From positions 1 through 32,594 of the forward strand of contig JAPLIO010000165.1 of NCBI GenBank assembly GCA_026389055.1: DNA of 32,594 nt. The letters are read 5' to 3'. Each line of letters opens with the position of its first letter. Within the stretch, counting starts at the first letter, position 1. The DNA is from Candidatus Melainabacteria bacterium (lineage in GTDB: Bacteria; Cyanobacteriota; Vampirovibrionia; Vampirovibrionales; JAJTHC01). Positions 6,961 through 32,594 of this stretch are shown one piece after another. The position numbers and the translations under genes were made by a program. The notes under the pieces are model-generated. The model searched no databases and was not told where the DNA came from. It worked only from the letters and a program-made list of their open reading frames with translations.

Positions 6961-7150
6961 AGGGTCTTTTCGGTACCTGTTAAAATTGAAGGCTCGGTAG
7001 AGCAGTTGGGTAATGATTGTTTTATTATAAGTCAAATCAATATAAAAAGGTAGCTATTAAGAAATATCTAACATATTTAAAGGAAGCCTTGCAATTTGAC
7101 AAGAAATTGAACGTTCAATTTTTTTAGATTTTATTGGAATTGTTAGTTTA

Positions 7151-7369
7151 AAACCACATCTAGTTGGGAACAGGCTGGTGCGAGCGTAGCGAAGCAGACC
7201 AATTAGGAAACCCTCTGGTTTTCGGTCAAGCCTGTTTTCAACGTGCGTGGGAACCAATCAACCCTTGAGAGGGGTTTATTAAGGGGGCGTGGAGCCCCCT
7301 TAATTTTGCGGGGGTATGGGGGGTGGCCAAATGGCACCCCCCACGAAGCCCTAGCTCGAAGCGATTAAC
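7151..7369. repeat. Dispersed ~220-bp GC-rich structured repeat, copy 2
   Basis: Same orientation as and high identity to 2650-2866; lies between the divergent CDF-CBS and rsmA genes. Confidence 0.9.
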
Positions 7370-7502
7370 CTGTCTGTATTCATTAAACAAAAAACGTTAG
7401 GTGTTAAGCATATCTGCAGGAAACCTTGCAATTTAGACAGGCTTGTGGGTTGATAGAACTATCATTATTTATGTTCATACTGTGATGGAGTCTCTAATCT
7501 CA

Positions 7503-8642
7503 ATGAAAAATACCACTAAACCCTATATGCCCAAAAGCTACACGCCTCGTAAAAAAACAGAAGGCTTCAATGGTGGGTCTGTGCCCAATGGCTTCGGTGC
7601 AGGCAAAAAGGCTTCAAATGGCGGAAAAAATAATGCGTTGGCGACGCCTTCCGTTTCACAAAACCCCTTGCTTAACGAAGCAAAAAAAATGCTGGCTAGA
7701 AAACGCTTTGGGCAAAACTTCCTTATTAGCCAATCCGTCATTGATGGCATTGTTCGGTGTTTAGATTTAAACCCCGCTACGGATAACGTCCTTGAAATTG
7801 GCCCAGGTTTAGGGTTTTTAACACAAAGCTTACGTCCAAACGTGAAGCATTTAACTTGTGTTGAATTAGATAAACGCATGGTGGATTATTTAGCTCGGAA
7901 ATTTCAATTGCTCCCTTCGAAAACATCTGAAGGCATTGATGAGCTAGACGTTGAATTCGATGCTGATGAAACAGACACCATGGCAGCGGATGAACCTGAA
8001 GAAACCCCTGCTTATATTAAAGGCGGTAACTTGTTGGAACCCATCCATGTGGAAGGCTTTAGCCTTATTCAGCAAGATATTTTGGCGTATCCGTTAGAAG
8101 CTATTCCCTACGATAAATTTAAAGTGGTGGGTAACATTCCTTATAACATTACTAGTGGCGTACTATTTAAGTTTGCGGGTGAATTAGAAGAAACCATCGT
8201 GCCAATGCGTCAAAAAGTGCAACAGCTAACCTTTATGGTGCAACGTGAAGTGGGTGAACGGATGGTTGCCCCAGCAGGGGGTAAGGCTTACAGTCCGCTT
8301 TCTATTGCCTTACAATATTGGTTTGAAGTACAGCAGGAATTTTTAGTACCCCCTGAAGCGTTTCAACCTCGTCCTAAAGTAACTTCGGTGGTTGTTAGCC
8401 TTATTCCTCGGGCAGAACCCTTGTGCCAAGTGGATGATTTAACGTTTATGAAGAAATTAGTTCGGGCGTCTTTCCAACAACGCCGTAAAACGTTGAAAAA
8501 TTCTTTATTGCATGATACTGGCATTCAGCCTCAAGCGTTGGAACAAGCATTACAAGAAACGGGTATTTCCCCAATGGCACGCCCTGAAACGTTGACCATT
8601 CAACAGTTCGGAGCATTAAGTAATGCCCTTACCCGCCAATAA
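7503..8642 (+). CDS. rsmA: 16S rRNA (adenine1518/1519-N6)-dimethyltransferase with N-terminal extension and acidic insertion
   Basis: KRFGQNFL, VLEIGPGLG, VELD, VVGNIPYNIT, MVQREV, FQPRPKVTS, FQQRRKTL, RPETL. Start at ATG 7503 (GGAG upstream) is estimated. Confidence 0.95.
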   Translation: MKNTTKPYMPKSYTPRKKTEGFNGGSVPNGFGAGKKASNGGKNNALATPSVSQNPLLNEAKKMLARKRFGQNFLISQSVIDGIVRCLDLNPATDNVLEIGPGLGFLTQSLRPNVKHLTCVELDKRMVDYLARKFQLLPSKTSEGIDELDVEFDADETDTMAADEPEETPAYIKGGNLLEPIHVEGFSLIQQDILAYPLEAIPYDKFKVVGNIPYNITSGVLFKFAGELEETIVPMRQKVQQLTFMVQREVGERMVAPAGGKAYSPLSIALQYWFEVQQEFLVPPEAFQPRPKVTSVVVSLIPRAEPLCQVDDLTFMKKLVRASFQQRRKTLKNSLLHDTGIQPQALEQALQETGISPMARPETLTIQQFGALSNALTRQ

Positions 8643-11341: not shown

Positions 11342-12379
11342 TTAAACTAATGCCAGTTGAAGTGGTCGACTAGTGGTTTCTTGTTGCTCAAAATAAGCGG
11401 TTAAATCTTGCATAATTTTACTAGCCAAAACGTAAGCTAATTGAACTGGCACGGCATTGCCCACCATTTTATATCCATCCACTACTTGCTGATACTTAAA
11501 CAAAAAGTCATCGGGGAACGTTTGAATTCTCGCACATTCCCGAACGGATAATCGCCTGTAGAGATGTTCTTTCCCTCGAGCAAAAATCCGCACGTTTTGT
11601 TCAATAAACGTCATTTTAGGGGCTTGCGGATGAATGGGTGCGTGCCGACCACCTGCTTGAATGGTAAAAGAAGGCTCATCCCATGCCCTTACTCGATTTC
11701 TTGACATGTAAATCGTTGAAAATCCACCCGTCATATATTCATGATTGCCAATGAAACACGCTTCATTGGCATTATTAGGGACTTTTGCAGGTATTGCTGT
11801 TTTCTGTAAATCTGCAATGGCATCAGTTAAGGTTAATTTCTTTTTAAATGGTTTCGGAAACTCAAATTTCAGCCCTAAATCTTCCCTATAGCCGATAAAA
11901 AATACTCGTTTTCTATCTTGAGGCACACCGTAATCTACCGCATTAAGTAGTTCAAAACTGAGTGTATAACCAGCTTCTTTCAATAAGGTTTGGATGTTTT
12001 CTAGGGCTTCACTATGGCGTGAAGCCAGCATGCCAGCCACATTTTCGGCTAAAAAGAAGAGTGGTTTTTTTGCTTTTAACAGGCGGATAAATTCGTAAAA
12101 TAGTTGACCTCTCGGGTCTTCAATCCCTCTTAAAGCCCCCGCTTCGCTCCAACTTTGGCACGGAGGCCCACCAATGATACCAATACAGTCAGGAACGGCT
12201 TCCGCAGGCACATTCCGAATACTTCTTGTGTCTAATGGTGTGTGTGGGAAGTTATGACGGAAAGTAGCTTCAATGCTTTTATCGTATTCATTGGCCCAAA
12301 TAACATTAAAACCCGCTTGTTCAAAGCCTTTATCTAGCCCGCCCGCTCCTGAAAACAACCCGATGATATTTTTATTCAT
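11342..12379 (-). CDS. C5-cytosine DNA methyltransferase, M.HaeIII/M.NgoPII-like (predicted GGCC)
   Basis: FSGAGG, GGPPCQSWS, ENV, QDRKRVF, GNAVP motifs; TRD HEY..G.FSTIYMSRNRVR.W.EP resembles M.HaeIII. ATG 12379 overlaps the endonuclease stop. Confidence 0.93.
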   Translation of the reverse strand: MNKNIIGLFSGAGGLDKGFEQAGFNVIWANEYDKSIEATFRHNFPHTPLDTRSIRNVPAEAVPDCIGIIGGPPCQSWSEAGALRGIEDPRGQLFYEFIRLLKAKKPLFFLAENVAGMLASRHSEALENIQTLLKEAGYTLSFELLNAVDYGVPQDRKRVFFIGYREDLGLKFEFPKPFKKKLTLTDAIADLQKTAIPAKVPNNANEACFIGNHEYMTGGFSTIYMSRNRVRAWDEPSFTIQAGGRHAPIHPQAPKMTFIEQNVRIFARGKEHLYRRLSVRECARIQTFPDDFLFKYQQVVDGYKMVGNAVPVQLAYVLASKIMQDLTAYFEQQETTSRPLQLALV

Positions 12380-13235
12380 GGCTATAATACTCCATAAAAA
12401 CGGCTTCCAGTAATTGAGCAGGATTATTGGGGTTTTTAATTTTAACAACTCGAATAGAGAAGCCTTTATCTTGCGTTTCTAGTATTTTTAATGCTTGTTT
12501 AGAAGCCTCATCGAAGCTATCCCATTTTTCTTTCTGCATCAAACAAAAGAGTTTAAACCCTTCTTTTTTAGGATGGCTGGGGAGTGTTTCGTATACCTTG
12601 TTGGGGTGAGCAATATGCCACATACCCCGAATACGCAAATCTGTAATACCTAAGGGGTCTACCTTGTGTACTTTTCCTAATTCTTTGGTTTTAGCGTCAA
12701 AATCAATATCAGGTATGGTTTGGATGCCTACAGAAATAGCCGTTTTTATCTTTTCATAGATTTCTTTATCAGCGGTGTAGCAATTTCCGTATACGAACCA
12801 AAGTGTCTTTAAATCAGCACCTTCTACAGTGCCTACAGTGTAAATAATATCTTTCACATCCCAAGTTTCACAAGTGCGGCAAGCTTTGCTTATCATGGGG
12901 CTATCAGCATACAGTTTTGATTTTGGATAGGAACTATTGAGGGCTAAAGCACTATTTTTAGATTCTATTTTCTTAACTTCAATCGCATCACCACCGTGTA
13001 GCATCATATCAGGTGGGTTATTGGCGTTACCTAAATAGGAAAAAATGGCGGTGTAACGTTCTGTTTTGGTGTTGACATCTTCAGCTTGCAATGTACCAGC
13101 AAACGCATCTTTAATGTAGGTTTCTAAAGCCGTTCCCATGTGGTTTGCTCTATTTTTACCCAATGCTTGTTTTTGAGTTTGTCGTTGCGTGCTAGTAATA
13201 ATGTTTTGAATGGCGATTAGAAGAGTTGAAACCAT
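12372..13235 (-). CDS. Type II restriction endonuclease, NgoPII family
   Basis: NRANHMGTALETYIKDAF, YLGNANNPPD..GGDAIEVKKIES (PD-ExK), ALNSSYPK, VDPLGITDLRIRGMW; coupled to the MTase. Confidence 0.88.
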   Translation of the reverse strand: MVSTLLIAIQNIITSTQRQTQKQALGKNRANHMGTALETYIKDAFAGTLQAEDVNTKTERYTAIFSYLGNANNPPDMMLHGGDAIEVKKIESKNSALALNSSYPKSKLYADSPMISKACRTCETWDVKDIIYTVGTVEGADLKTLWFVYGNCYTADKEIYEKIKTAISVGIQTIPDIDFDAKTKELGKVHKVDPLGITDLRIRGMWHIAHPNKVYETLPSHPKKEGFKLFCLMQKEKWDSFDEASKQALKILETQDKGFSIRVVKIKNPNNPAQLLEAVFMEYYSHE

Positions 13236-15275: not shown

Positions 15276-15321
15276 TCGGTTTGTGAAGCTTTCATCAGAA
15301 GGAAATACCCACTATTTTATG

Positions 15322-15390
15322 GTTAATTTTCAACTAAAGTTAGTTGGTTTTAACCTGAAAAGTAGTTAATTTTAACCTAAAAAATAGTTG
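15322..15390. repeat. Three degenerate tandem 21-22-bp direct repeats upstream of the binding-protein gene
   Basis: GTTAATTTTCAACTAAAGTTA / GTTGGTTTTAACCTGAAAAGTA / GTTAATTTTAACCTAAAAAATA / GTTGG. Confidence 0.6.
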
Positions 15391-15405
15391 GGCAAGTTAA
15401 TGCTT

Positions 15406-18094: not shown

Positions 18095-18244
18095 CAAGAG
18101 CTTACTGAAAAAGCCTTCATTAGGCGTGCTAGCGTTGTTACTTGCGGTACTCCCTTGGTTATGTAGTTTTGGCTACACGCCCGTCAGTCCGTTCCGCGTG
18201 CCTAGCTATCTCATCCTACTGAAATCTTTTTCCGCAACCTCCTA
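18095..18244. mobile_element. RPE-1-like palindromic element (MITE-like), copy A; overlaps murG 3' end
   Basis: Imperfect 30-bp terminal inverted repeats (about 22/30) and a core GCGGTACTC...GTAG/CTAC hairpin...CGTTCCGC shared with the copies at 23628, 27486 and 28665. Confidence 0.75.
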
Positions 18245-23627: not shown

Positions 23628-23773
23628 TAGACCTCTTGCATGACTCGATATCTGGGGCATCTTTTTTGTCATTTACGGTACTCCCTCAGGTTAAGTAGTT
23701 AGGCTACATGCCCATCGGTGCGTTCCGCATTCCTCAAATCTGCACCCACCTATCAAGTCATGCAAGAGATTTA
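23628..23773. mobile_element. RPE-1-like palindromic element, copy B (146 bp)
   Basis: TAGACCTCTTGCATGACTCGATA ... TATCAAGTCATGCAAGAGATTTA terminal inverted repeats; homologous to the reverse complement of 27486-27631. Confidence 0.88.
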
Positions 23774-23825: not shown

Positions 23826-24039
23826 GGGGACATAGGCTATAGGGTGTGTGTTTCAAGGGAAAATTAAACAATTTCTCTCTTTTTAGGTTGAGGGGTAATG
23901 GGGTAGTTGTCCCTCAACAGGTTAATAAAAACAATCTATCTACCTAAATTGCGTTTGTAACTGAATTGTTACAACGCTAAATGAAAACAACCCCCTCTGG
24001 CTTCTATTTGAAAACCAAAGGAGGTTAATCTATATGAAC

Positions 24040-24110
24040 TGTCATTCCGAGCGAAGTCGAGGAATCTCCTTGCCGTCTAGGGAGATGTTTCGACTACGCT
24101 CAACATGACA
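24040..24110. repeat. TGTCA/CGTC-type palindromic REP-like element
   Basis: TGTCATTCCGAGCGAAGTCGAGGAATCTCC ... GGAGATGTTTCGACTACGCTCAACATGACA, a long imperfect inverted repeat of the widespread GTCAT..GAGCGAAG..GAATCT type. Confidence 0.8.
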
Positions 24111-24125
24111 ATATCATTTAAGTTT

Positions 24126-24665
24126 TTAGTAGAACATTAAATCGCCACCACGCTCAAACGCACGCATTTCTTTCCAAGGCGTATGGTCTGGTGTTACGGG
24201 GCGTTTTGTTGGTACAAAGCTTGCCATTGGTTTTAATTTGCCAATATGCCGAGGCATTACAATACTGCTAGCCGTTGTGTTGTAAACCTGCCGTGTGTGG
24301 AAAGTAGTTGCTCTGCTATTATGGCTAGGGGTTGGTGCCATACCATTACCATGGTCAGCTGCCCACTGGCTATCATGTCCTTTGGTGTATAAATCCGGCG
24401 TTTCTTCCATGTAAGTGGTTTTGGCTTCATCTACCATTTGACGAAATGGCTTACCTGAAGTGGTTTTTGATGGAGTGCTGGCTTCTTCACCTTCCATTGC
24501 GGTAGGTGCTTCGGCTTCCCATGGGGCTTGGCTCATTAAGGTATAGGCTGGTTGGGTTTCTTCAGCTTGGGCAACCATGGTGCCAACGTTTACGGAACAG
24601 ATTAGTGCTAAAACAAGTGCAGAGAGGAAATGAGATTTTTTCACGAAATAAGGTGTCCTTTTCAT
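24126..24665 (-). CDS. Hypothetical exported protein
   Basis: Basic N-terminus, hydrophobic stretch and AQA signal-peptidase site; low-complexity mature part. Confidence 0.65.
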   Translation of the reverse strand: MKRTPYFVKKSHFLSALVLALICSVNVGTMVAQAEETQPAYTLMSQAPWEAEAPTAMEGEEASTPSKTTSGKPFRQMVDEAKTTYMEETPDLYTKGHDSQWAADHGNGMAPTPSHNSRATTFHTRQVYNTTASSIVMPRHIGKLKPMASFVPTKRPVTPDHTPWKEMRAFERGGDLMFY

Positions 24666-25935: not shown

Positions 25936-26083
25936 GATATCACCAAGGCTTTGGCCACATTATGGTAACGAAAGTGCCACACTGTACTATAACACGGTTT
26001 GGGGAAAATTTATCAAATTTCAATAAAAATTTACGTTTATCTGCGGATTTCATATCAACCCAAAGATTGAATAGCGTATTGAA

Positions 26084-26151
26084 TGTAGGGGCGTGATTTA
26101 TCACGTCCGCCCCTCAATCCCCAAACGGATGCGATAAATCGCACCCCTACA
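26084..26151. repeat. GTAG-type REP doublet (REPIN-like), copy 1
   Basis: TGTAGGGGCGTGATTTATCACGTCC-spacer-GGATGCGATAAATCGCACCCCTACA: two inverted GTAG-tagged hairpins; 64/68 identical to the reverse complement of 31689-31756. Confidence 0.9.
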
Positions 26152-26193
26152 ATTTTAGACTCAATAATATTTTGAATGGATTTTACAACCCCA

Positions 26194-27102
26194 TTACTGC
26201 TTTTTAACAATGCTCATGGCACTAGAAATTAGGCTACTAATGTTGCTTAAATCCGCTGGTACAATCAGTGTGGTGCCTTCTTTGGCTAAGTTTGAAAATG
26301 CGGCAACGTATTGTTCGGCTACCTTCAATTCCACTGCTTTCGCCCCACCATCGGTTGCGATTGCTTTCGCCACGGTGCTAATCGCTTCGGCTGTAGCGGT
26401 TGCCACTACTCGGATTGATTCCGCATCACCCATCGCTTTGTTAATAACGGCTTGCTTTTTCCCTTCAGATTCGGCAATGGCAGCTTGCCGCTCCCCGTTG
26501 GCTCGGTTAATTTGTTGTTGCAAATCGCCTTCTGATTGAGCGATTTTTGCCCGTTTTTCTCGTTCGGCGGTTAATTGCAATTGCATGGTTTTCAGCACGA
26601 TATCGGGCGGTGTAATATCTTTTACTTCATAGCGAATTAGCTTGACGCCCCACTCTTCAGACGCTTCATCTAGCACGCTAACTACGGCAAAATTGATGGT
26701 TTGACGTTCTTCTAATAGGCGGTCTAGTTCTCGTTTGCCCACTTCTGAACGGAGTGTAGTTTTGGCTAATTGCTCAATGGCGAACCGAAAATCAGAGGTT
26801 CCGTAGGAAGCCAGCTTGGGGTCGGTAATTTTGTAGTAAAGAATCCCGTCAATGTGGACTTGGGTGTTGTCTTTGGTGATGCACACTTGGGGTTGCACGT
26901 CCATGGGTATTTCTTTTAGGCTATGCACGTAGGCAATTTTATCGACGAAGGGAATGACGAAGTGCAGCCCTGCGTGCAGGGTTTTTTGGTACATCCCGAA
27001 GCGTTCAATCACGTAGACGGTTTGTTGTGGCACAATTTTCACAATGCTACTTAGCACCCATACTGCCACCCCTGTGGGTATAACCCAAGAAAAATCAGCC
27101 AT
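26194..27102 (-). CDS. SPFH/band 7 stomatin-like protein (QmcA/SLP-2 type)
   Basis: IVPQQ..YVIERFG.Y..TL.AGLHF.IPFVDKIAY, ITKDN, LRSEVGK..LD, WGVKL.RYEVKDI, AEREKRA. AAGGAG SD before ATG 27102. Confidence 0.93.
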   Translation of the reverse strand: MADFSWVIPTGVAVWVLSSIVKIVPQQTVYVIERFGMYQKTLHAGLHFVIPFVDKIAYVHSLKEIPMDVQPQVCITKDNTQVHIDGILYYKITDPKLASYGTSDFRFAIEQLAKTTLRSEVGKRELDRLLEERQTINFAVVSVLDEASEEWGVKLIRYEVKDITPPDIVLKTMQLQLTAEREKRAKIAQSEGDLQQQINRANGERQAAIAESEGKKQAVINKAMGDAESIRVVATATAEAISTVAKAIATDGGAKAVELKVAEQYVAAFSNLAKEGTTLIVPADLSNISSLISSAMSIVKKQ

Positions 27103-27214
27103 TACAAACAAGCTCCTTATTTTTAAAAACGATAATTTAACAGATATAATTTATTGCCATGATACCATATTTTATAAAATTATGGAAAGATCTTCTAATT
27201 GTTCGCATTTTATA

Positions 27215-27243
27215 TTGACAAAGCTCGCTTTAATCGCTATACT
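27215..27243 (+). promoter_or_regulatory. Near-consensus sigma70 promoter; predicted leaderless transcript of the toxin gene
   Basis: TTGACA (27215-27220), 17-bp spacer, TATACT (27238-27243); ATG begins 7 nt later at 27250 with no SD. Confidence 0.8.
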
Positions 27244-27249
27244 ATCAAT

Positions 27250-27674
27250 ATGATTAAAGTATTATTTACAAACACCGCTATTAAACAACTAACCAAAATA
27301 CCGCCACTCATTGCCAAAAAAGCGTTGGCTTGGGCAGCAGAGGTAGAGAACAAGGGGCTACTGGCTTCAAGGCTTATTAAAGGAAAGCATGACGAACCCT
27401 TGAAAGGCAAACGCCAAGGACAACGCTCCGTAAGACTAAATAAACAATGGCGATTGATTTATAGCGAAATAACGCTTGAAATAATTAGACCTGTTACATG
27501 GCTCGATAGGTGGGTGCAGATTCTAGGAATGAGGAACGGAGAACCGCAGGTGTACACTTTAGTACATGAGGATTCGAGTACCGCAAATGACAACGAAGAT
27601 GCCCCAGATATCGAGTCATGTAACAGGTCTAGTGAAATACAGGAGATTATCCCCATGATTATAGAACCCGCTAA
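27250..27674 (+). pseudogene. HigB/RelE-like toxin interrupted by an in-frame RPE-like insertion and a 1-nt frameshift at its 3' end
   Basis: HDEPLKGKRQGQRSVRLNKQWRLIY is nearly identical to the paralogue at 30760-31026. The expected end PHDYRTR* lies in the -1 frame after the C4 run at 27651-27654. Confidence 0.75.
27486..27631. mobile_element. RPE-1-like palindromic element, copy C, inserted in frame in the toxin gene
   Basis: TAGACCTGTTACATGGCTCGATA ... TATCGAGTCATGTAACAGGTCTA (22/23 inverted repeat), TA at both ends, net 144 bp. Translates to RPVTWL...VYTLVHEDSST...CNRS. Confidence 0.92.
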
Positions 27675-28014
27675 ATTAGATAGCCTCATGGAACAATACC
27701 CTGAAGGCGTACCCGCTGAAGCATTATTTGAGGCGATTGGTTATCAACACCAAGAAGCTTCTTTGGGTAGTATGATGAGGGAATGGCGACAATGTGAGGG
27801 CTGGACTTTAACTGAAACGGCTCAAAAGCTGGGTATTTCGAAGCAATTTTTATCGGAATATGAACGAGGTCATAAATTACCCTCTATCAAAAAAGTAATT
27901 GAAATAGCCACAACCTTTGAAGTAGACCCTGCTTCTTGGCTGAAATTTCGGCTACAAGATGAATTACGCATGAATGGGTATGATGGCACGTTGGATATTT
28001 TTAAAATCGCCTAA
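27655..28014 (+). CDS. HigA-like XRE-family HTH antitoxin
   Basis: SLGSMMREWR...TLTETAQKLGISKQFLSEYERG.KLPS. Its ATG lies inside the toxin CAT-G codon, as in the paralogous pair. Confidence 0.85.
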   Translation: MIIEPAKLDSLMEQYPEGVPAEALFEAIGYQHQEASLGSMMREWRQCEGWTLTETAQKLGISKQFLSEYERGHKLPSIKKVIEIATTFEVDPASWLKFRLQDELRMNGYDGTLDIFKIA

Positions 28015-28021
28015 AAACCCC

Positions 28022-28050
28022 TTGCACACACGCCGTGTTTCACTTACTGT
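28022..28050 (+). promoter_or_regulatory. Candidate rplS promoter
   Basis: TTGCAC-N17-TACTGT, about 180 nt upstream of rplS. Confidence 0.45.
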
Positions 28051-28234
28051 ATTAAAGAGACATTAGGGTTGCTTTGCCTTCTTTTATTAGAAGCACTGCA
28101 CTATTAACCCACCAGCCAGTCGGTTAATAGACCACTATTATTATTTTGACCGTGCGCTACTGGAACTGCCCTGCCCTGTATCACGCTCCGCTTTTACTTT
28201 GTAAAAGTGTCAATTCAGAAAAGAGATACCCCTC

Positions 28235-28654
28235 ATGATGAGTCATCATCCGTTAATTGAAGAAATTAACCAAGAATTCCTAAAAACAGACCGCCCCAGC
28301 ATTTTCCCTGGCGATTCTGTGCGTGTAAACGTATTGATTCGTGAAGGCAGCAAAGAGCGGGTTCAAGCCTTTGAAGGCGTGGTTTTGGCTAAACGTGGCG
28401 GTGGTATTAACACCACGTTTGTTGTGCGGAAAGTATTCCAAGGCGTTAGCGTAGAACGCTCGTTCTTCTTGCATTCACCTAAAGTGGAAAGCATCAAAAT
28501 TATTCGCCGTGGTAAAGTGCGTCGTGCAAAACTTTACTTCTTGCGTGAACGGATTGGTAAATCTGCCCGTATTCGTGAAAAAACCACGGGTTACGCAACC
28601 ATCAATAAATTTGGCAACATTTTGTTGGCGAACCCTACTACGCCTAAAAAGTAG
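28235..28654 (+). CDS. rplS: 50S ribosomal protein L19
   Basis: PGDSVRV...EG.KERVQAFEGVV, TFVVRK...GVSVER.F..HSP, RRGKVRRAKLYFLR. Confidence 0.98.
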   Translation: MMSHHPLIEEINQEFLKTDRPSIFPGDSVRVNVLIREGSKERVQAFEGVVLAKRGGGINTTFVVRKVFQGVSVERSFFLHSPKVESIKIIRRGKVRRAKLYFLRERIGKSARIREKTTGYATINKFGNILLANPTTPKK

Positions 28655-28664
28655 ACTTCTTTTT

Positions 28665-28810
28665 AAGAAAGCTCTGCAAAAGTCTCCATAAGGCGTGCTA
28701 ACTTCGTTATTGTGGTACTCATTTCGGTTATTTACTATTTGTAAACGCCCTTATTGCGTTCCTCATGCCTCGTTATCCCATCCTTCTGAAACCTTTTGCA
28801 AAACTTTCTA
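28665..28810. mobile_element. RPE-1-like palindromic element, copy D (146 bp), between rplS and rbgA
   Basis: AGAAAGCTCTGCAAAAG ... CTTTTGCAAAACTTTCT inverted ends; interior aligns with copy A (AGGCGTGCTA...GGTACTC...GGTTAT...ACGCCC...CGTTCC...TGCCT...TATC.CATCCT). Confidence 0.8.
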
Positions 28811-28890
28811 AACCCATTAAAAGTGCGGGTGGATTATTCAATCTCTTCCCGCACTTTTTTTCACTCCCGAAAAAGGGGCTTTTCTTTACA

Positions 28891-30446: not shown

Positions 30447-30770
30447 TTAAACCCATTGTAGCGGAATGCCTGCTTTTTTCAGCTGTTCGTTCACTACCGC
30501 TTGCACCCAAACTTCCGCAATGCCCCCCAAGGTTAACGCTATTTGATGTGCCAATTTTAAAGTAGGCAACCGCCTGCCTGCTTCATAATCGCAAATGCGT
30601 TGTTTTACTGTACCCAATTGTTGGGCAATTGCTTCTTGGGTTAGGTTGTGTTCCGTGCGATACGCTTCCAACAACGCCCCAAACGTTAGTGCTGGCAAGC
30701 CTAGTTGTTGAAATAATTGCTGGCTACCCGTTGAAGCAGTCGATGGAGTTAAGGCATTTTTAGTAGGCAT
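30447..30770 (-). CDS. HigA-like XRE-family HTH antitoxin
   Basis: LTFGALLEAYR...LTQEAIAQQLG..KQRICDYEAGRRLPT; overlaps the toxin stop. Confidence 0.85.
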   Translation of the reverse strand: MPTKNALTPSTASTGSQQLFQQLGLPALTFGALLEAYRTEHNLTQEAIAQQLGTVKQRICDYEAGRRLPTLKLAHQIALTLGGIAEVWVQAVVNEQLKKAGIPLQWV

Positions 30771-31631: not shown

Positions 31632-31688
31632 TATGTTTTAGCCTTTTGGACGGTAATCCACCAGAAGCTTCTACCACGCCATTATTTT

Positions 31689-31756
31689 TGTAGGGGTGCG
31701 ATTTATCGCATCCGTTTCAGGATTGTGGGGCAGACGTGATAAATCACGCCCCTACA
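31689..31756. repeat. GTAG-type REP doublet, copy 2 (inverted relative to copy 1)
   Basis: TGTAGGGGTGCGATTTATCGCATCC...GACGTGATAAATCACGCCCCTACA. Confidence 0.9.
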
Positions 31757-31919
31757 GGTTCAAAAATTTTTTAAACTACTATAAATAGCTTCCCACCAGT
31801 AGGAACGACCATCGCATTTGCCCTGCAGCTGCCGATGCGTTCCGTCCACCAGCGGGGCAAAAAGAACATCCCGCCGTCAATGCCCGTAGTGGCATAGGCG
31901 GGTGGCTTTTTGGGGGGAT

Positions 31920-32005
31920 TTTAGGGGGTACCCCCCTGAATTTGTGGGGGGTGTCGGGGGGCTGTCAAACGACAGTCCCCTGACGAACCAACCAGCTAAA
32001 GCAAG
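31920..32005. repeat. Divergent partial relative of the 2650/7151 repeat
   Basis: Same order of elements: GGGGG-loop-CCCCC hairpin, TTTGYGGGGGGTGT, G-run/CAAA-loop/C-run hairpin, AYGAA...AAGC. Confidence 0.55.
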
Positions 32006-32043
32006 AAACGACAATCGATTATAGAACACGACATTTATTAACC

Positions 32044-32457: not shown

Positions 32458-32594
32458 AGTTGGTAAAAATCCTTTCGTTAGGTAGTGGATTGGGGGGTTG
32501 ATAGTTGTCCCAGTAATCATCTATATGCAGAATAAAAGGTTCGGGTCAAATAAACATGAATATGAGCCCAATAATCTAATTTCTTTGTCGATGC

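Follow-up and report, generated by a model that had tools for sequence, protein, structure and literature searches.

A palindromic mobile element and a one-base deletion in a RelE-superfamily toxin gene of a Vampirovibrio-like bacterium, with probable loss of the toxin and retention of the antitoxin

The locus described here lies on contig JAPLIO010000165.1 of a Candidatus Melainabacteria genome (assembly GCA_026389055.1), of which the first 32,594 nucleotides were analysed and are called the window below. It consists of a toxin gene of the RelE superfamily (HigB/YafQ-like) followed by the gene of an XRE-type helix-turn-helix (HTH) antitoxin. The toxin gene is interrupted near its 3' end by a palindromic repeat of 146 bp, and one base is missing from the toxin codons beyond the repeat. 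The positions of these features are collected in Table 1. The host belongs to a Vampirovibrio-like lineage; Vampirovibrio is described as a member of the non-photosynthetic Cyanobacteriota that preys on microalgae (PMC4451040). The source genome (G000; 2.21 Mb in 254 contigs, 44% G+C, 94.9% complete) was compared with G001, a metagenome-assembled genome (MAG) of the sister species, which is the only other species in the genus.

The repeat has two 29-nt arms that are 90% complementary and are separated by 88 nt (29 + 88 + 29). Folded as RNA it reaches -71.1 kcal/mol, against -34.4 +/- 4.1 kcal/mol for dinucleotide shuffles of the same element (z = -9.03), and none of 200 shuffles folds equally well. 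The arm pattern has three matches within the window, where 0 are expected. The element is therefore not a chance palindrome. It contains no transposase gene, and none of its open reading frames (ORFs) matches a Pfam family; it is a non-autonomous palindromic transposable element, that is, a MITE (miniature inverted-repeat transposable element). No Rfam family was found in the window, and a known structured RNA or an intron is without support.

The net length added to the toxin gene is 144 bp (146 minus 2), corresponding to 48 residues. The toxin frame crosses the element stop-free from the ATG at 27250, and the encoded peptide includes YTLVHEDSST. All of these features, from the TA-bounded palindrome to the inserted peptide, had been claimed by a model that saw only the letters of the window and their translations (the sequence-only reading), and they are confirmed by the arms, the fold and the ORF. 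An open toxin frame through the element is not rare: a random insertion would have about a one-in-three chance of it, because the subfamily is open in two of the six frames (F1 and R2). The toxin copy differs from its own subfamily only at positions 8, 11, 136 and 139. Position 8 pairs with 139 and position 11 with 136, which makes two compensatory pairs and leaves the stem perfect. This arm variant is absent elsewhere in G000 and G001. The copy carries zero unpaired private substitutions and for this reason looks young.

The interrupted toxin scores 22.3 bits against the Pfam family HigB-like_toxin, under the 27-bit cut-off, and is 50% identical to the intact paralogue. When the 144 nt are taken out, the toxin reads ...RLIYSEITLEIISEIQEIIP and aligns with that paralogue, as had been proposed. 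A comparison with orthologous toxins, suggested at the same time as a check, also favours an insertion: the segment occurs in none of 11 aligned homologues, which come from six genomes and all end with H.Y, and in none of the other eight toxin paralogues of G000. Removal of 146 nt instead of 144 was considered and rejected. It would place HDY in frame, but with ATG TGA as an immediate stop, and the alignment with homologues becomes worse.

A second lesion lies 17-19 nt beyond the element, where the Thr codon of the conserved (I/V)TPH(D/E)Y end lacks one base. It was recognised by comparison with the paralogue on contig C63 and seven others, and with the homologue in G001. The C63 paralogue (GAGATTACTCCCCATGATTAC) reads ...ATTATT GAAATACAGGAGATTACTCCCCATGATTAC, and the window reads ...ATAATT, then the element, then GT GAAATACAGGAGATTA-TCCCCATGATTAT; around the Thr codon the alignment is GAGATTA-TCCCCATG against GAGATTACTCCCCATG. 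There are nine toxin-family loci in G000, and the other eight all end with (I/V/L)TPH(D/E/A)Y, followed by a short tail or none. Because of the missing base, PHDYRTR* and its stop codon are lost from the toxin ORF, and the frame enters the XRE antitoxin gene. The full ORF extends over 27199-28014 (271 aa), passes the antitoxin ATG at 27655 and stops at 28012-28014. In the ESM Atlas, recognition was 1630, with unnamed short clusters only.

The intact paralogue was modelled with AlphaFold2 from a 12-sequence alignment, which gave a pLDDT of 91.9. The model has a strand at residues 2-5, three helices, and strands at 47-49, 57-61, 66-72 and 77-85. In a Foldseek search the best match was YafQ (4mmj, TM 0.80), and YoeB and HigB (4mct, TM 0.69) were also found; 46 PDB chains matched at E <= 1e-3 and, of those listed, all but one are RelE-family toxins. 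In a profile search of the PDB, 6f8s, a 'Putative Killer protein', ranked first with E = 6.8e-6; next came HigB, YoeB and YafQ, with values of about 0.01-0.02. The paralogue is thus predicted to have a RelE fold, and the earlier description of the interrupted gene as a HigB-like toxin is supported, as one of RelE/HigB/YafQ type.

The insertion point corresponds to the position after paralogue residue 78. This is two residues into the last β-strand (77-85) and not in a loop. When the disrupted product (135 aa) was modelled, with a mean pLDDT of 77, the fold was retained over residues 1-83, the initial residues of the insert replaced the last strand, and a helix came next at 84-93. Beyond residue 93 the pLDDT is 43-53, and the native SEIQEIIP segment is left unplaced. 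YafQ and HigB need their C-terminal His and Tyr for activity, and these residues are mutated in several deposited structures, whose titles name H87Q, Y91A and delta-H92. In the window toxin, the conserved C-terminal His/Tyr segment is out of frame. Since the last strand is split and PHDY is lost, the toxin is most likely inactive. The sequence-only reading had offered either a new protein or an inactivated toxin. The 1-nt deletion and the split strand favour inactivation, and the new-protein outcome is not favoured.

Table 1. Features of the interrupted toxin-antitoxin locus and related features of the window.
Feature	Position	Strand	Remarks
Toxin gene, 5' part, RelE superfamily (HigB/YafQ-like)	27250..27485	+	Residues 1-78 and start of codon 79
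Palindromic MITE copy, 146 bp	27486..27631	.	TA at both ends; toxin-frame reading RPVTWLDRWVQILGMRNGEPQVYTLVHEDSSTANDNEDAPDIESCNRS
Left terminal inverted repeat	27486..27514	.	29 nt; private variant CCTGTTACATG
Right terminal inverted repeat	27603..27631	.	29 nt; matching compensatory variant CATGTAACAGG
Toxin 3' remnant (S)EIQEIIP	27632..27654	+	One Thr-codon base missing at about 27649-27651
Native toxin end HDYRTR*	27654..27674	+	Frame -1 relative to toxin; overlaps antitoxin start; matches paralogue C-termini
Fused open frame (toxin without C-terminus, MITE peptide, antitoxin)	27250..28014	+	254 aa from ATG 27250
XRE-type HTH antitoxin gene, intact	27655..28014	+	119 aa; Pfam HTH_3 E = 1.5e-12
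Putative ribosome-binding site AGGAG	27641..27645	+	9 nt ahead of antitoxin ATG
Putative sigma-70-like promoter	27215..27243	+	TTGACA, 17 nt, TATACT; 11/12 consensus matches only; ends 6 nt before toxin ATG
Intact paralogous toxin, 88 aa	30763-31026	-	Ends ELTPHAY* (RLIYCEHSKTLIELEELTPHAY*); Pfam YafQ_toxin 31.5 bits, cut-off 30
Antitoxin of intact paralogue	30447..30770	-	ATG overlaps toxin end
Second MITE-family copy, intergenic	23628..23768	-	78% identical; sequence match to element

An active toxin might still be produced if the ribosome shifted back by one base, with tRNA-Pro slipping on C CCC (27651-27654) to give ...IIPHDYRTR* and the insert extruded as a hairpin. The four C's would permit re-pairing one base back, the HDYRTR* frame is intact, and inserts of the kind made by Rickettsia palindromic elements (RPEs) are tolerated in other proteins. 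However, the site has neither a canonical slippery heptamer nor a downstream stimulatory structure, the hairpin being upstream. The overlap with the antitoxin start is reason enough for the HDYRTR* codons to be conserved, and even a completed C-terminus would follow an insert that splits the last core strand, with the native C-terminal segment unplaced in the model. We regard such a slip as very unlikely.

The fused frame raises another possibility, namely that the 254-aa product is a functional new protein in which a dead toxin is tethered through the MITE peptide to the antitoxin, for example as an autoregulator or a decoy. No stop interrupts the frame between 27250 and 28011, a strong promoter-like site lies ahead of it, the toxin core (residues 1-80) is modelled at pLDDT 88-95, and the same peptide is tolerated in ClpB (see below). 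In addition, the single-nucleotide polymorphisms (SNPs) seen inside the fused ORF in other populations, at 27336 and 27909, are both third-position synonymous changes, as judged from the codons. Two synonymous SNPs are, however, too few to argue for selection, and in a copy that looks this young the frame can be open without it. Among 42 homologous toxin matches in 41 genomes, the 271-aa frame of the window is the only one longer than 125 aa. The antitoxin has a ribosome-binding site and an ATG of its own, and the junctions are not covered in expression contigs. A functional fusion is thus unlikely, and the inactivated toxin remains the preferred explanation.

The element belongs to a repeat family. 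It has 46 matches in G000 at E <= 0.001, and a permissive blastn search returned 105 high-scoring segment pairs, many of them at contig ends. Of these, 37 extend over 130 nt or more of the 146-nt element, and the 32 that lie away from contig ends were used to analyse ends and reading frames. Most of the 32 copies have the ends TAGACC...GGTCTA (TAGACCTCTTGCATG...CATGCAAGAGGTCTA), either exactly or with few substitutions, and a few have diverged or extrapolated ends. Pairs bounded by terminal inverted repeats are exactly 146 bp long in 18 of 40 cases in G000, with longer classes of 173, about 180 and 207-242 bp. The sister species has 21 scored matches; among 39 further relatives, the family is represented only by short partial matches in 3 genomes.

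The consensus peptide of frame F1 is RPLAWLDRWVQILGMRNGEFEVYTEVHKNSSTANDNEDAPDIESCKRS. This frame is open in 11 of the 32 copies, the remainder having TGA in place of TGG; for the reverse frame R2 the number of open copies is 21. A subfamily is marked by CCGC at positions 59-62, found in 7 of 22 aligned copies. In the 29-nt stems of 20 copies, 15 changes affect both sides, of which 13 are compensatory and 2 are not, and 50 affect one side only; some of these events are shared by descent. On a rough estimate, independent mutation would yield less than one compensatory pair. Template switching within hairpins is a known route to quasipalindrome mutations. The explanation is either selection on the hairpin, at the DNA or the RNA level, or mutual correction of the arms by template switching inside it.

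The sequence-only reading had also suggested that the element inserts in frame into proteins, in the manner of RPEs, and this is borne out by two housekeeping genes. Three F1 copies have long flanking ORFs, all of the CCGC subfamily: those in the toxin (96 codons before the insert and 127 after), in ClpB (749 and 127) and in a 342-aa ORF. In the ClpB gene of G000 (contig C191:603-748, L011, minus strand) the copy adds 48 residues in frame. Compared with ClpB of G001 there are exactly 144 extra nucleotides, and the flanks of the protein are 98% and 90% identical. The insert is within the second AAA domain (Pfam AAA_2), at a point where Thermus ClpB has 3 residues and the G000 protein has 62. 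The reverse situation is found in RibBA. Here G001 carries a copy of a longer class in frame (L061:1501-1659; G001:C1 about 38.45-38.61 kb), directly upstream of the GTP cyclohydrolase II motif; the G000 protein (contig C207), 86% identical overall, lacks it and shows a 53-residue gap. The 342-aa ORF belongs to no known family and has its C-terminus supplied by an element copy (C205:3797-3942, L014), as does a truncated FAD/NAD-binding oxidoreductase in the public protein set (P0006).

Comparison of these sequences thus indicates that the insert is tolerated in ClpB and RibBA. With a net length divisible by three, copies of the subfamily with an open F1 can persist inside genes as 48-residue insertions. 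The reciprocal filled and empty sites, with ClpB filled in G000 and empty in G001 and RibBA filled in G001 and empty in G000, indicate that the family has been mobile recently.

Among the nearest known counterparts are RPE-1 to RPE-3. RPEs are described as about 150 bp long, with solvent-exposed peptides (PMC10969869, PMC3767692), and nearly half of the copies in R. conorii are reported to be in frame inside ORFs (PMC10969869). Like them, the present family is a palindrome of about 150 bp in tens of copies, with one frame encoding a conserved hydrophilic peptide, and in-frame copies lie within unrelated housekeeping genes (here ClpB and RibBA) that are not destroyed. The host is different, being a Vampirovibrio-like member of the Cyanobacteriota and not one of the Rickettsiales. 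Only 3 of the 32 full copies are in long ORFs, in contrast to the nearly half reported for RPEs (PMC10969869), and the toxin copy interrupts a core strand, in a gene with a frameshift as well. The family can accordingly be called RPE-like by its apparent behaviour.

It could be argued that the element is truly related to RPE-1, through shared ancestry or horizontal transfer, since size, palindromy and in-frame behaviour are alike. The sequence-only reading had proposed a similarity between YTLVHEDSST and an RPE-1 peptide, given as YTLVRED(A/S)ST; a literature search found this motif in no paper. A profile built from ten F1 peptides gave 19 matches at E <= 1e-3 among 1.84 billion representative proteins. 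Six of these (P0001, P0005, P0006, P0009, P0014 and P0018) were examined; they are short ORFs, the FAD-oxidoreductase fragment and the 342-aa ORF, and all six carry the repeat described here. When one genome for each of 185,579 species was scanned for two peptide patterns, 19 loci came up, every one in the sister-species MAG (Vampirovibrio sp. isolate DET50b). The element peptide has no match in 72,556 plasmids at E <= 1 or in the PDB at E <= 10, and no Pfam family; a 10-residue motif alone would score under the thresholds of the protein, plasmid and PDB searches, which for such a motif are not a strict exclusion. We regard a common origin with RPE-1 as highly improbable. Two further profile matches, P0007 and P0019, are giant proteins in which the similarity is limited to short stretches that recur. 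In P0007 (4625 aa), profile positions 1-16 are matched in 33 stretches, which may be an unrelated short repeat.

A literature search that excluded supplements found no paper pairing Vampirovibrio or Melainabacteria with MITE or palindromic terms, although such a paper may exist. Other MITEs are known to reach into genes. QMITE1 and QMITE2 of Coxiella burnetii, with about 50 copies, are described as overlapping or extending ORFs and encoding peptides (PMC5896051), and the overlap with ORFs is shared by the present family. QMITE1 is reported to be 300-400 bp long, with variable 2-3-nt direct repeats, and to lie mostly at gene C-termini (PMC5896051). The present element, in contrast, is 146 bp, TA-bounded, and internal in ClpB and RibBA.

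The way in which the family spreads is suggested by its ends. Transposases of the IS630 type (DDE_3) duplicate TA. Like MITEs of the IS630/Tc1-mariner group, the element is small, has terminal inverted repeats and TA ends, and lacks transposase coding; IS630-type transposases are abundant in the genus, where Pfam DDE_3 has 44 matches in G001 (the fragmented G000 has 2). Most copies begin and finish with TA, and the ClpB insertion adds 144 = 146 - 2 nt, though TA is also part of the palindrome. The TA ends and the inverted repeats suggest that the element may be mobilised by an IS630-type transposase targeting TA. Another 146-bp MITE in G001 (C2, L076:902-1047) has the same 29 + 88 + 29 layout with different arms, and its ends resemble those of one IS630-type element. 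No arm pair of insertion sequence (IS) size was found in the fragmented G000, and the scan of G001 was not exhaustive.

An insertion or frameshift in a metagenome-derived genome could also be an artefact of assembly. The bin is rich in repeats, and many of its 254 contigs end in this one. The locus was found in runs of 13 studies, mostly labelled as lake or freshwater metagenomes. The junctions were checked on contigs assembled from four runs; contigs drop rare variants, so alleles without the element could have been missed. One contig of run X5 reaches from 27100 to 27526 and another from 27591 to 27926, with 0 differences each; those of run X10 reach from 27100 to 27523 (2 SNPs) and from 27591 to 28100 (3 SNPs). 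Two studies besides the possible source thus bridge each junction by about 40 nt, with 0-3 differences. There are no indels at 27640-27660 in the X5 and X10 contigs, where the missing base lies, and none of the contigs from the four runs joins the two flanks directly. Misassembly, which the sequence-only reading had named as a way of refuting its claim, is not borne out, and we consider an artefact the least probable of all the explanations.

On the basis of these observations, we propose that a young in-frame MITE copy and a separate 1-nt deletion have inactivated a HigB/YafQ-like toxin, with retention of the antitoxin; we would put the probability of this at roughly three in four. The MITE family has proliferated in a freshwater Vampirovibrio-like genus, and a copy of the CCGC-subfamily type with an open, hydrophilic F1 would have landed in the last β-strand of a cassette toxin. 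A base of the Thr codon has been lost, which puts His and Tyr out of frame, removes the stop and leads translation into the antitoxin frame. The antitoxin would presumably be translated independently from its own ribosome-binding site and ATG.

Several points weigh against this proposal. The fused frame is fully open, which that of a long-dead gene need not be. The loss of toxin activity and the order of the two lesions are what we infer. In the four runs no single contig covers the entire element, which is expected because the element is multi-copy. Contigs of the RNA run X18 cover 27855-28100 only, and not the toxin or the element. With regard to the mobility of the family, the search yielded no autonomous partner that shares its terminal repeats, the IS630 copies examined having other ends, and in this the family differs from typical IS630/Tc1-mariner MITEs. 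The empty ClpB site of G001 has no TA at the junction, so that duplication of a TA target is not proven.

The event in the toxin is in itself ordinary: a MITE insertion and a frameshift, with decay of the toxin and persistence of the antitoxin. The wider significance is in the repeat, as a new family of MITEs with RPE-like behaviour from a Vampirovibrio-like lineage. To our knowledge, most palindromic repeats known to lie in frame within proteins come from Rickettsia. The present family has no detected sequence link to RPEs but acts as they do, in a relative of cyanobacteria that is free-living and predatory, and the filled and empty pairs of ClpB and RibBA date insertions as recent. This provides a second natural system in which to study how proteins tolerate 48-residue inserts and why the hairpin is conserved. 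A more far-reaching claim can be formulated, in which a coding-compatible MITE family, active now and adding 48-57 residues to essential proteins (ClpB and RibBA), is an independent re-invention of the RPE strategy, with the hairpin kept by compensatory changes and the toxin locus giving an expressed, functional single-chain protein. Taken as a whole, we think this improbable.

The context of the cassette can be compared with known toxin-antitoxin systems. The toxin gene comes first and is overlapped by that of an XRE-HTH antitoxin, as in HigBA; at the other eight loci in G000, the antitoxin ATG overlaps the last toxin codons by 8-17 nt. The RelE fold predicted for the paralogue is shared with HigBA/GraTA and DinJ-YafQ. 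The window toxin differs from these systems in falling under the Pfam HigB cut-off, in having no in-frame His/Tyr, and in its 48-residue insert and fusion to the antitoxin. Orthologue-like copies of the antitoxin are present in G001 and on contig C251; a tblastn search of plasmids with the antitoxin gave five weak matches in unrelated taxa.

At the syntenic site in G001, the SPFH side (window 26193-27188) directly adjoins the rplS side (28012-28666), and the cassette (about 27189-28011) is absent, which suggests that it is accessory. The closest homologue in G001 (C1, about 35.7-36.1 kb) is a 3' toxin remnant of the last ~35 codons beside a 117-aa antitoxin. It reads ...EEVTPHDYRTR* (...QQWRLIYTETLEIIAIEEVTPHDYRTR*), with no insert, and appears to be a second, independent case of toxin decay.

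The window holds about 11 repeat loci altogether. Apart from the two MITE copies there are nine further multi-copy repeats, mostly intergenic and with 9 to 92 genomic matches each (2591-2873, 7097-7408, 15319-15391, 18098-18241, 24039-24128, 26049-26152, 28663-28812, 31680-32037 and 32498-32582). Two of the nine touch ORF ends, one at the 3' end of MurG (18216-18241) and one at the start of a GTPase ORF (28765). The KsgA (RrnaAD) ORF of 399 aa (window 7443-8642) has a Pfam match in which 312 residues correspond to 258 profile positions, that is, about 50 extra residues; none of the repeats detected in the window accounts for them. A type II restriction-modification pair is found on the minus strand at window 11342-13235, where a C-5 cytosine methylase adjoins an NgoPII-type restriction endonuclease.

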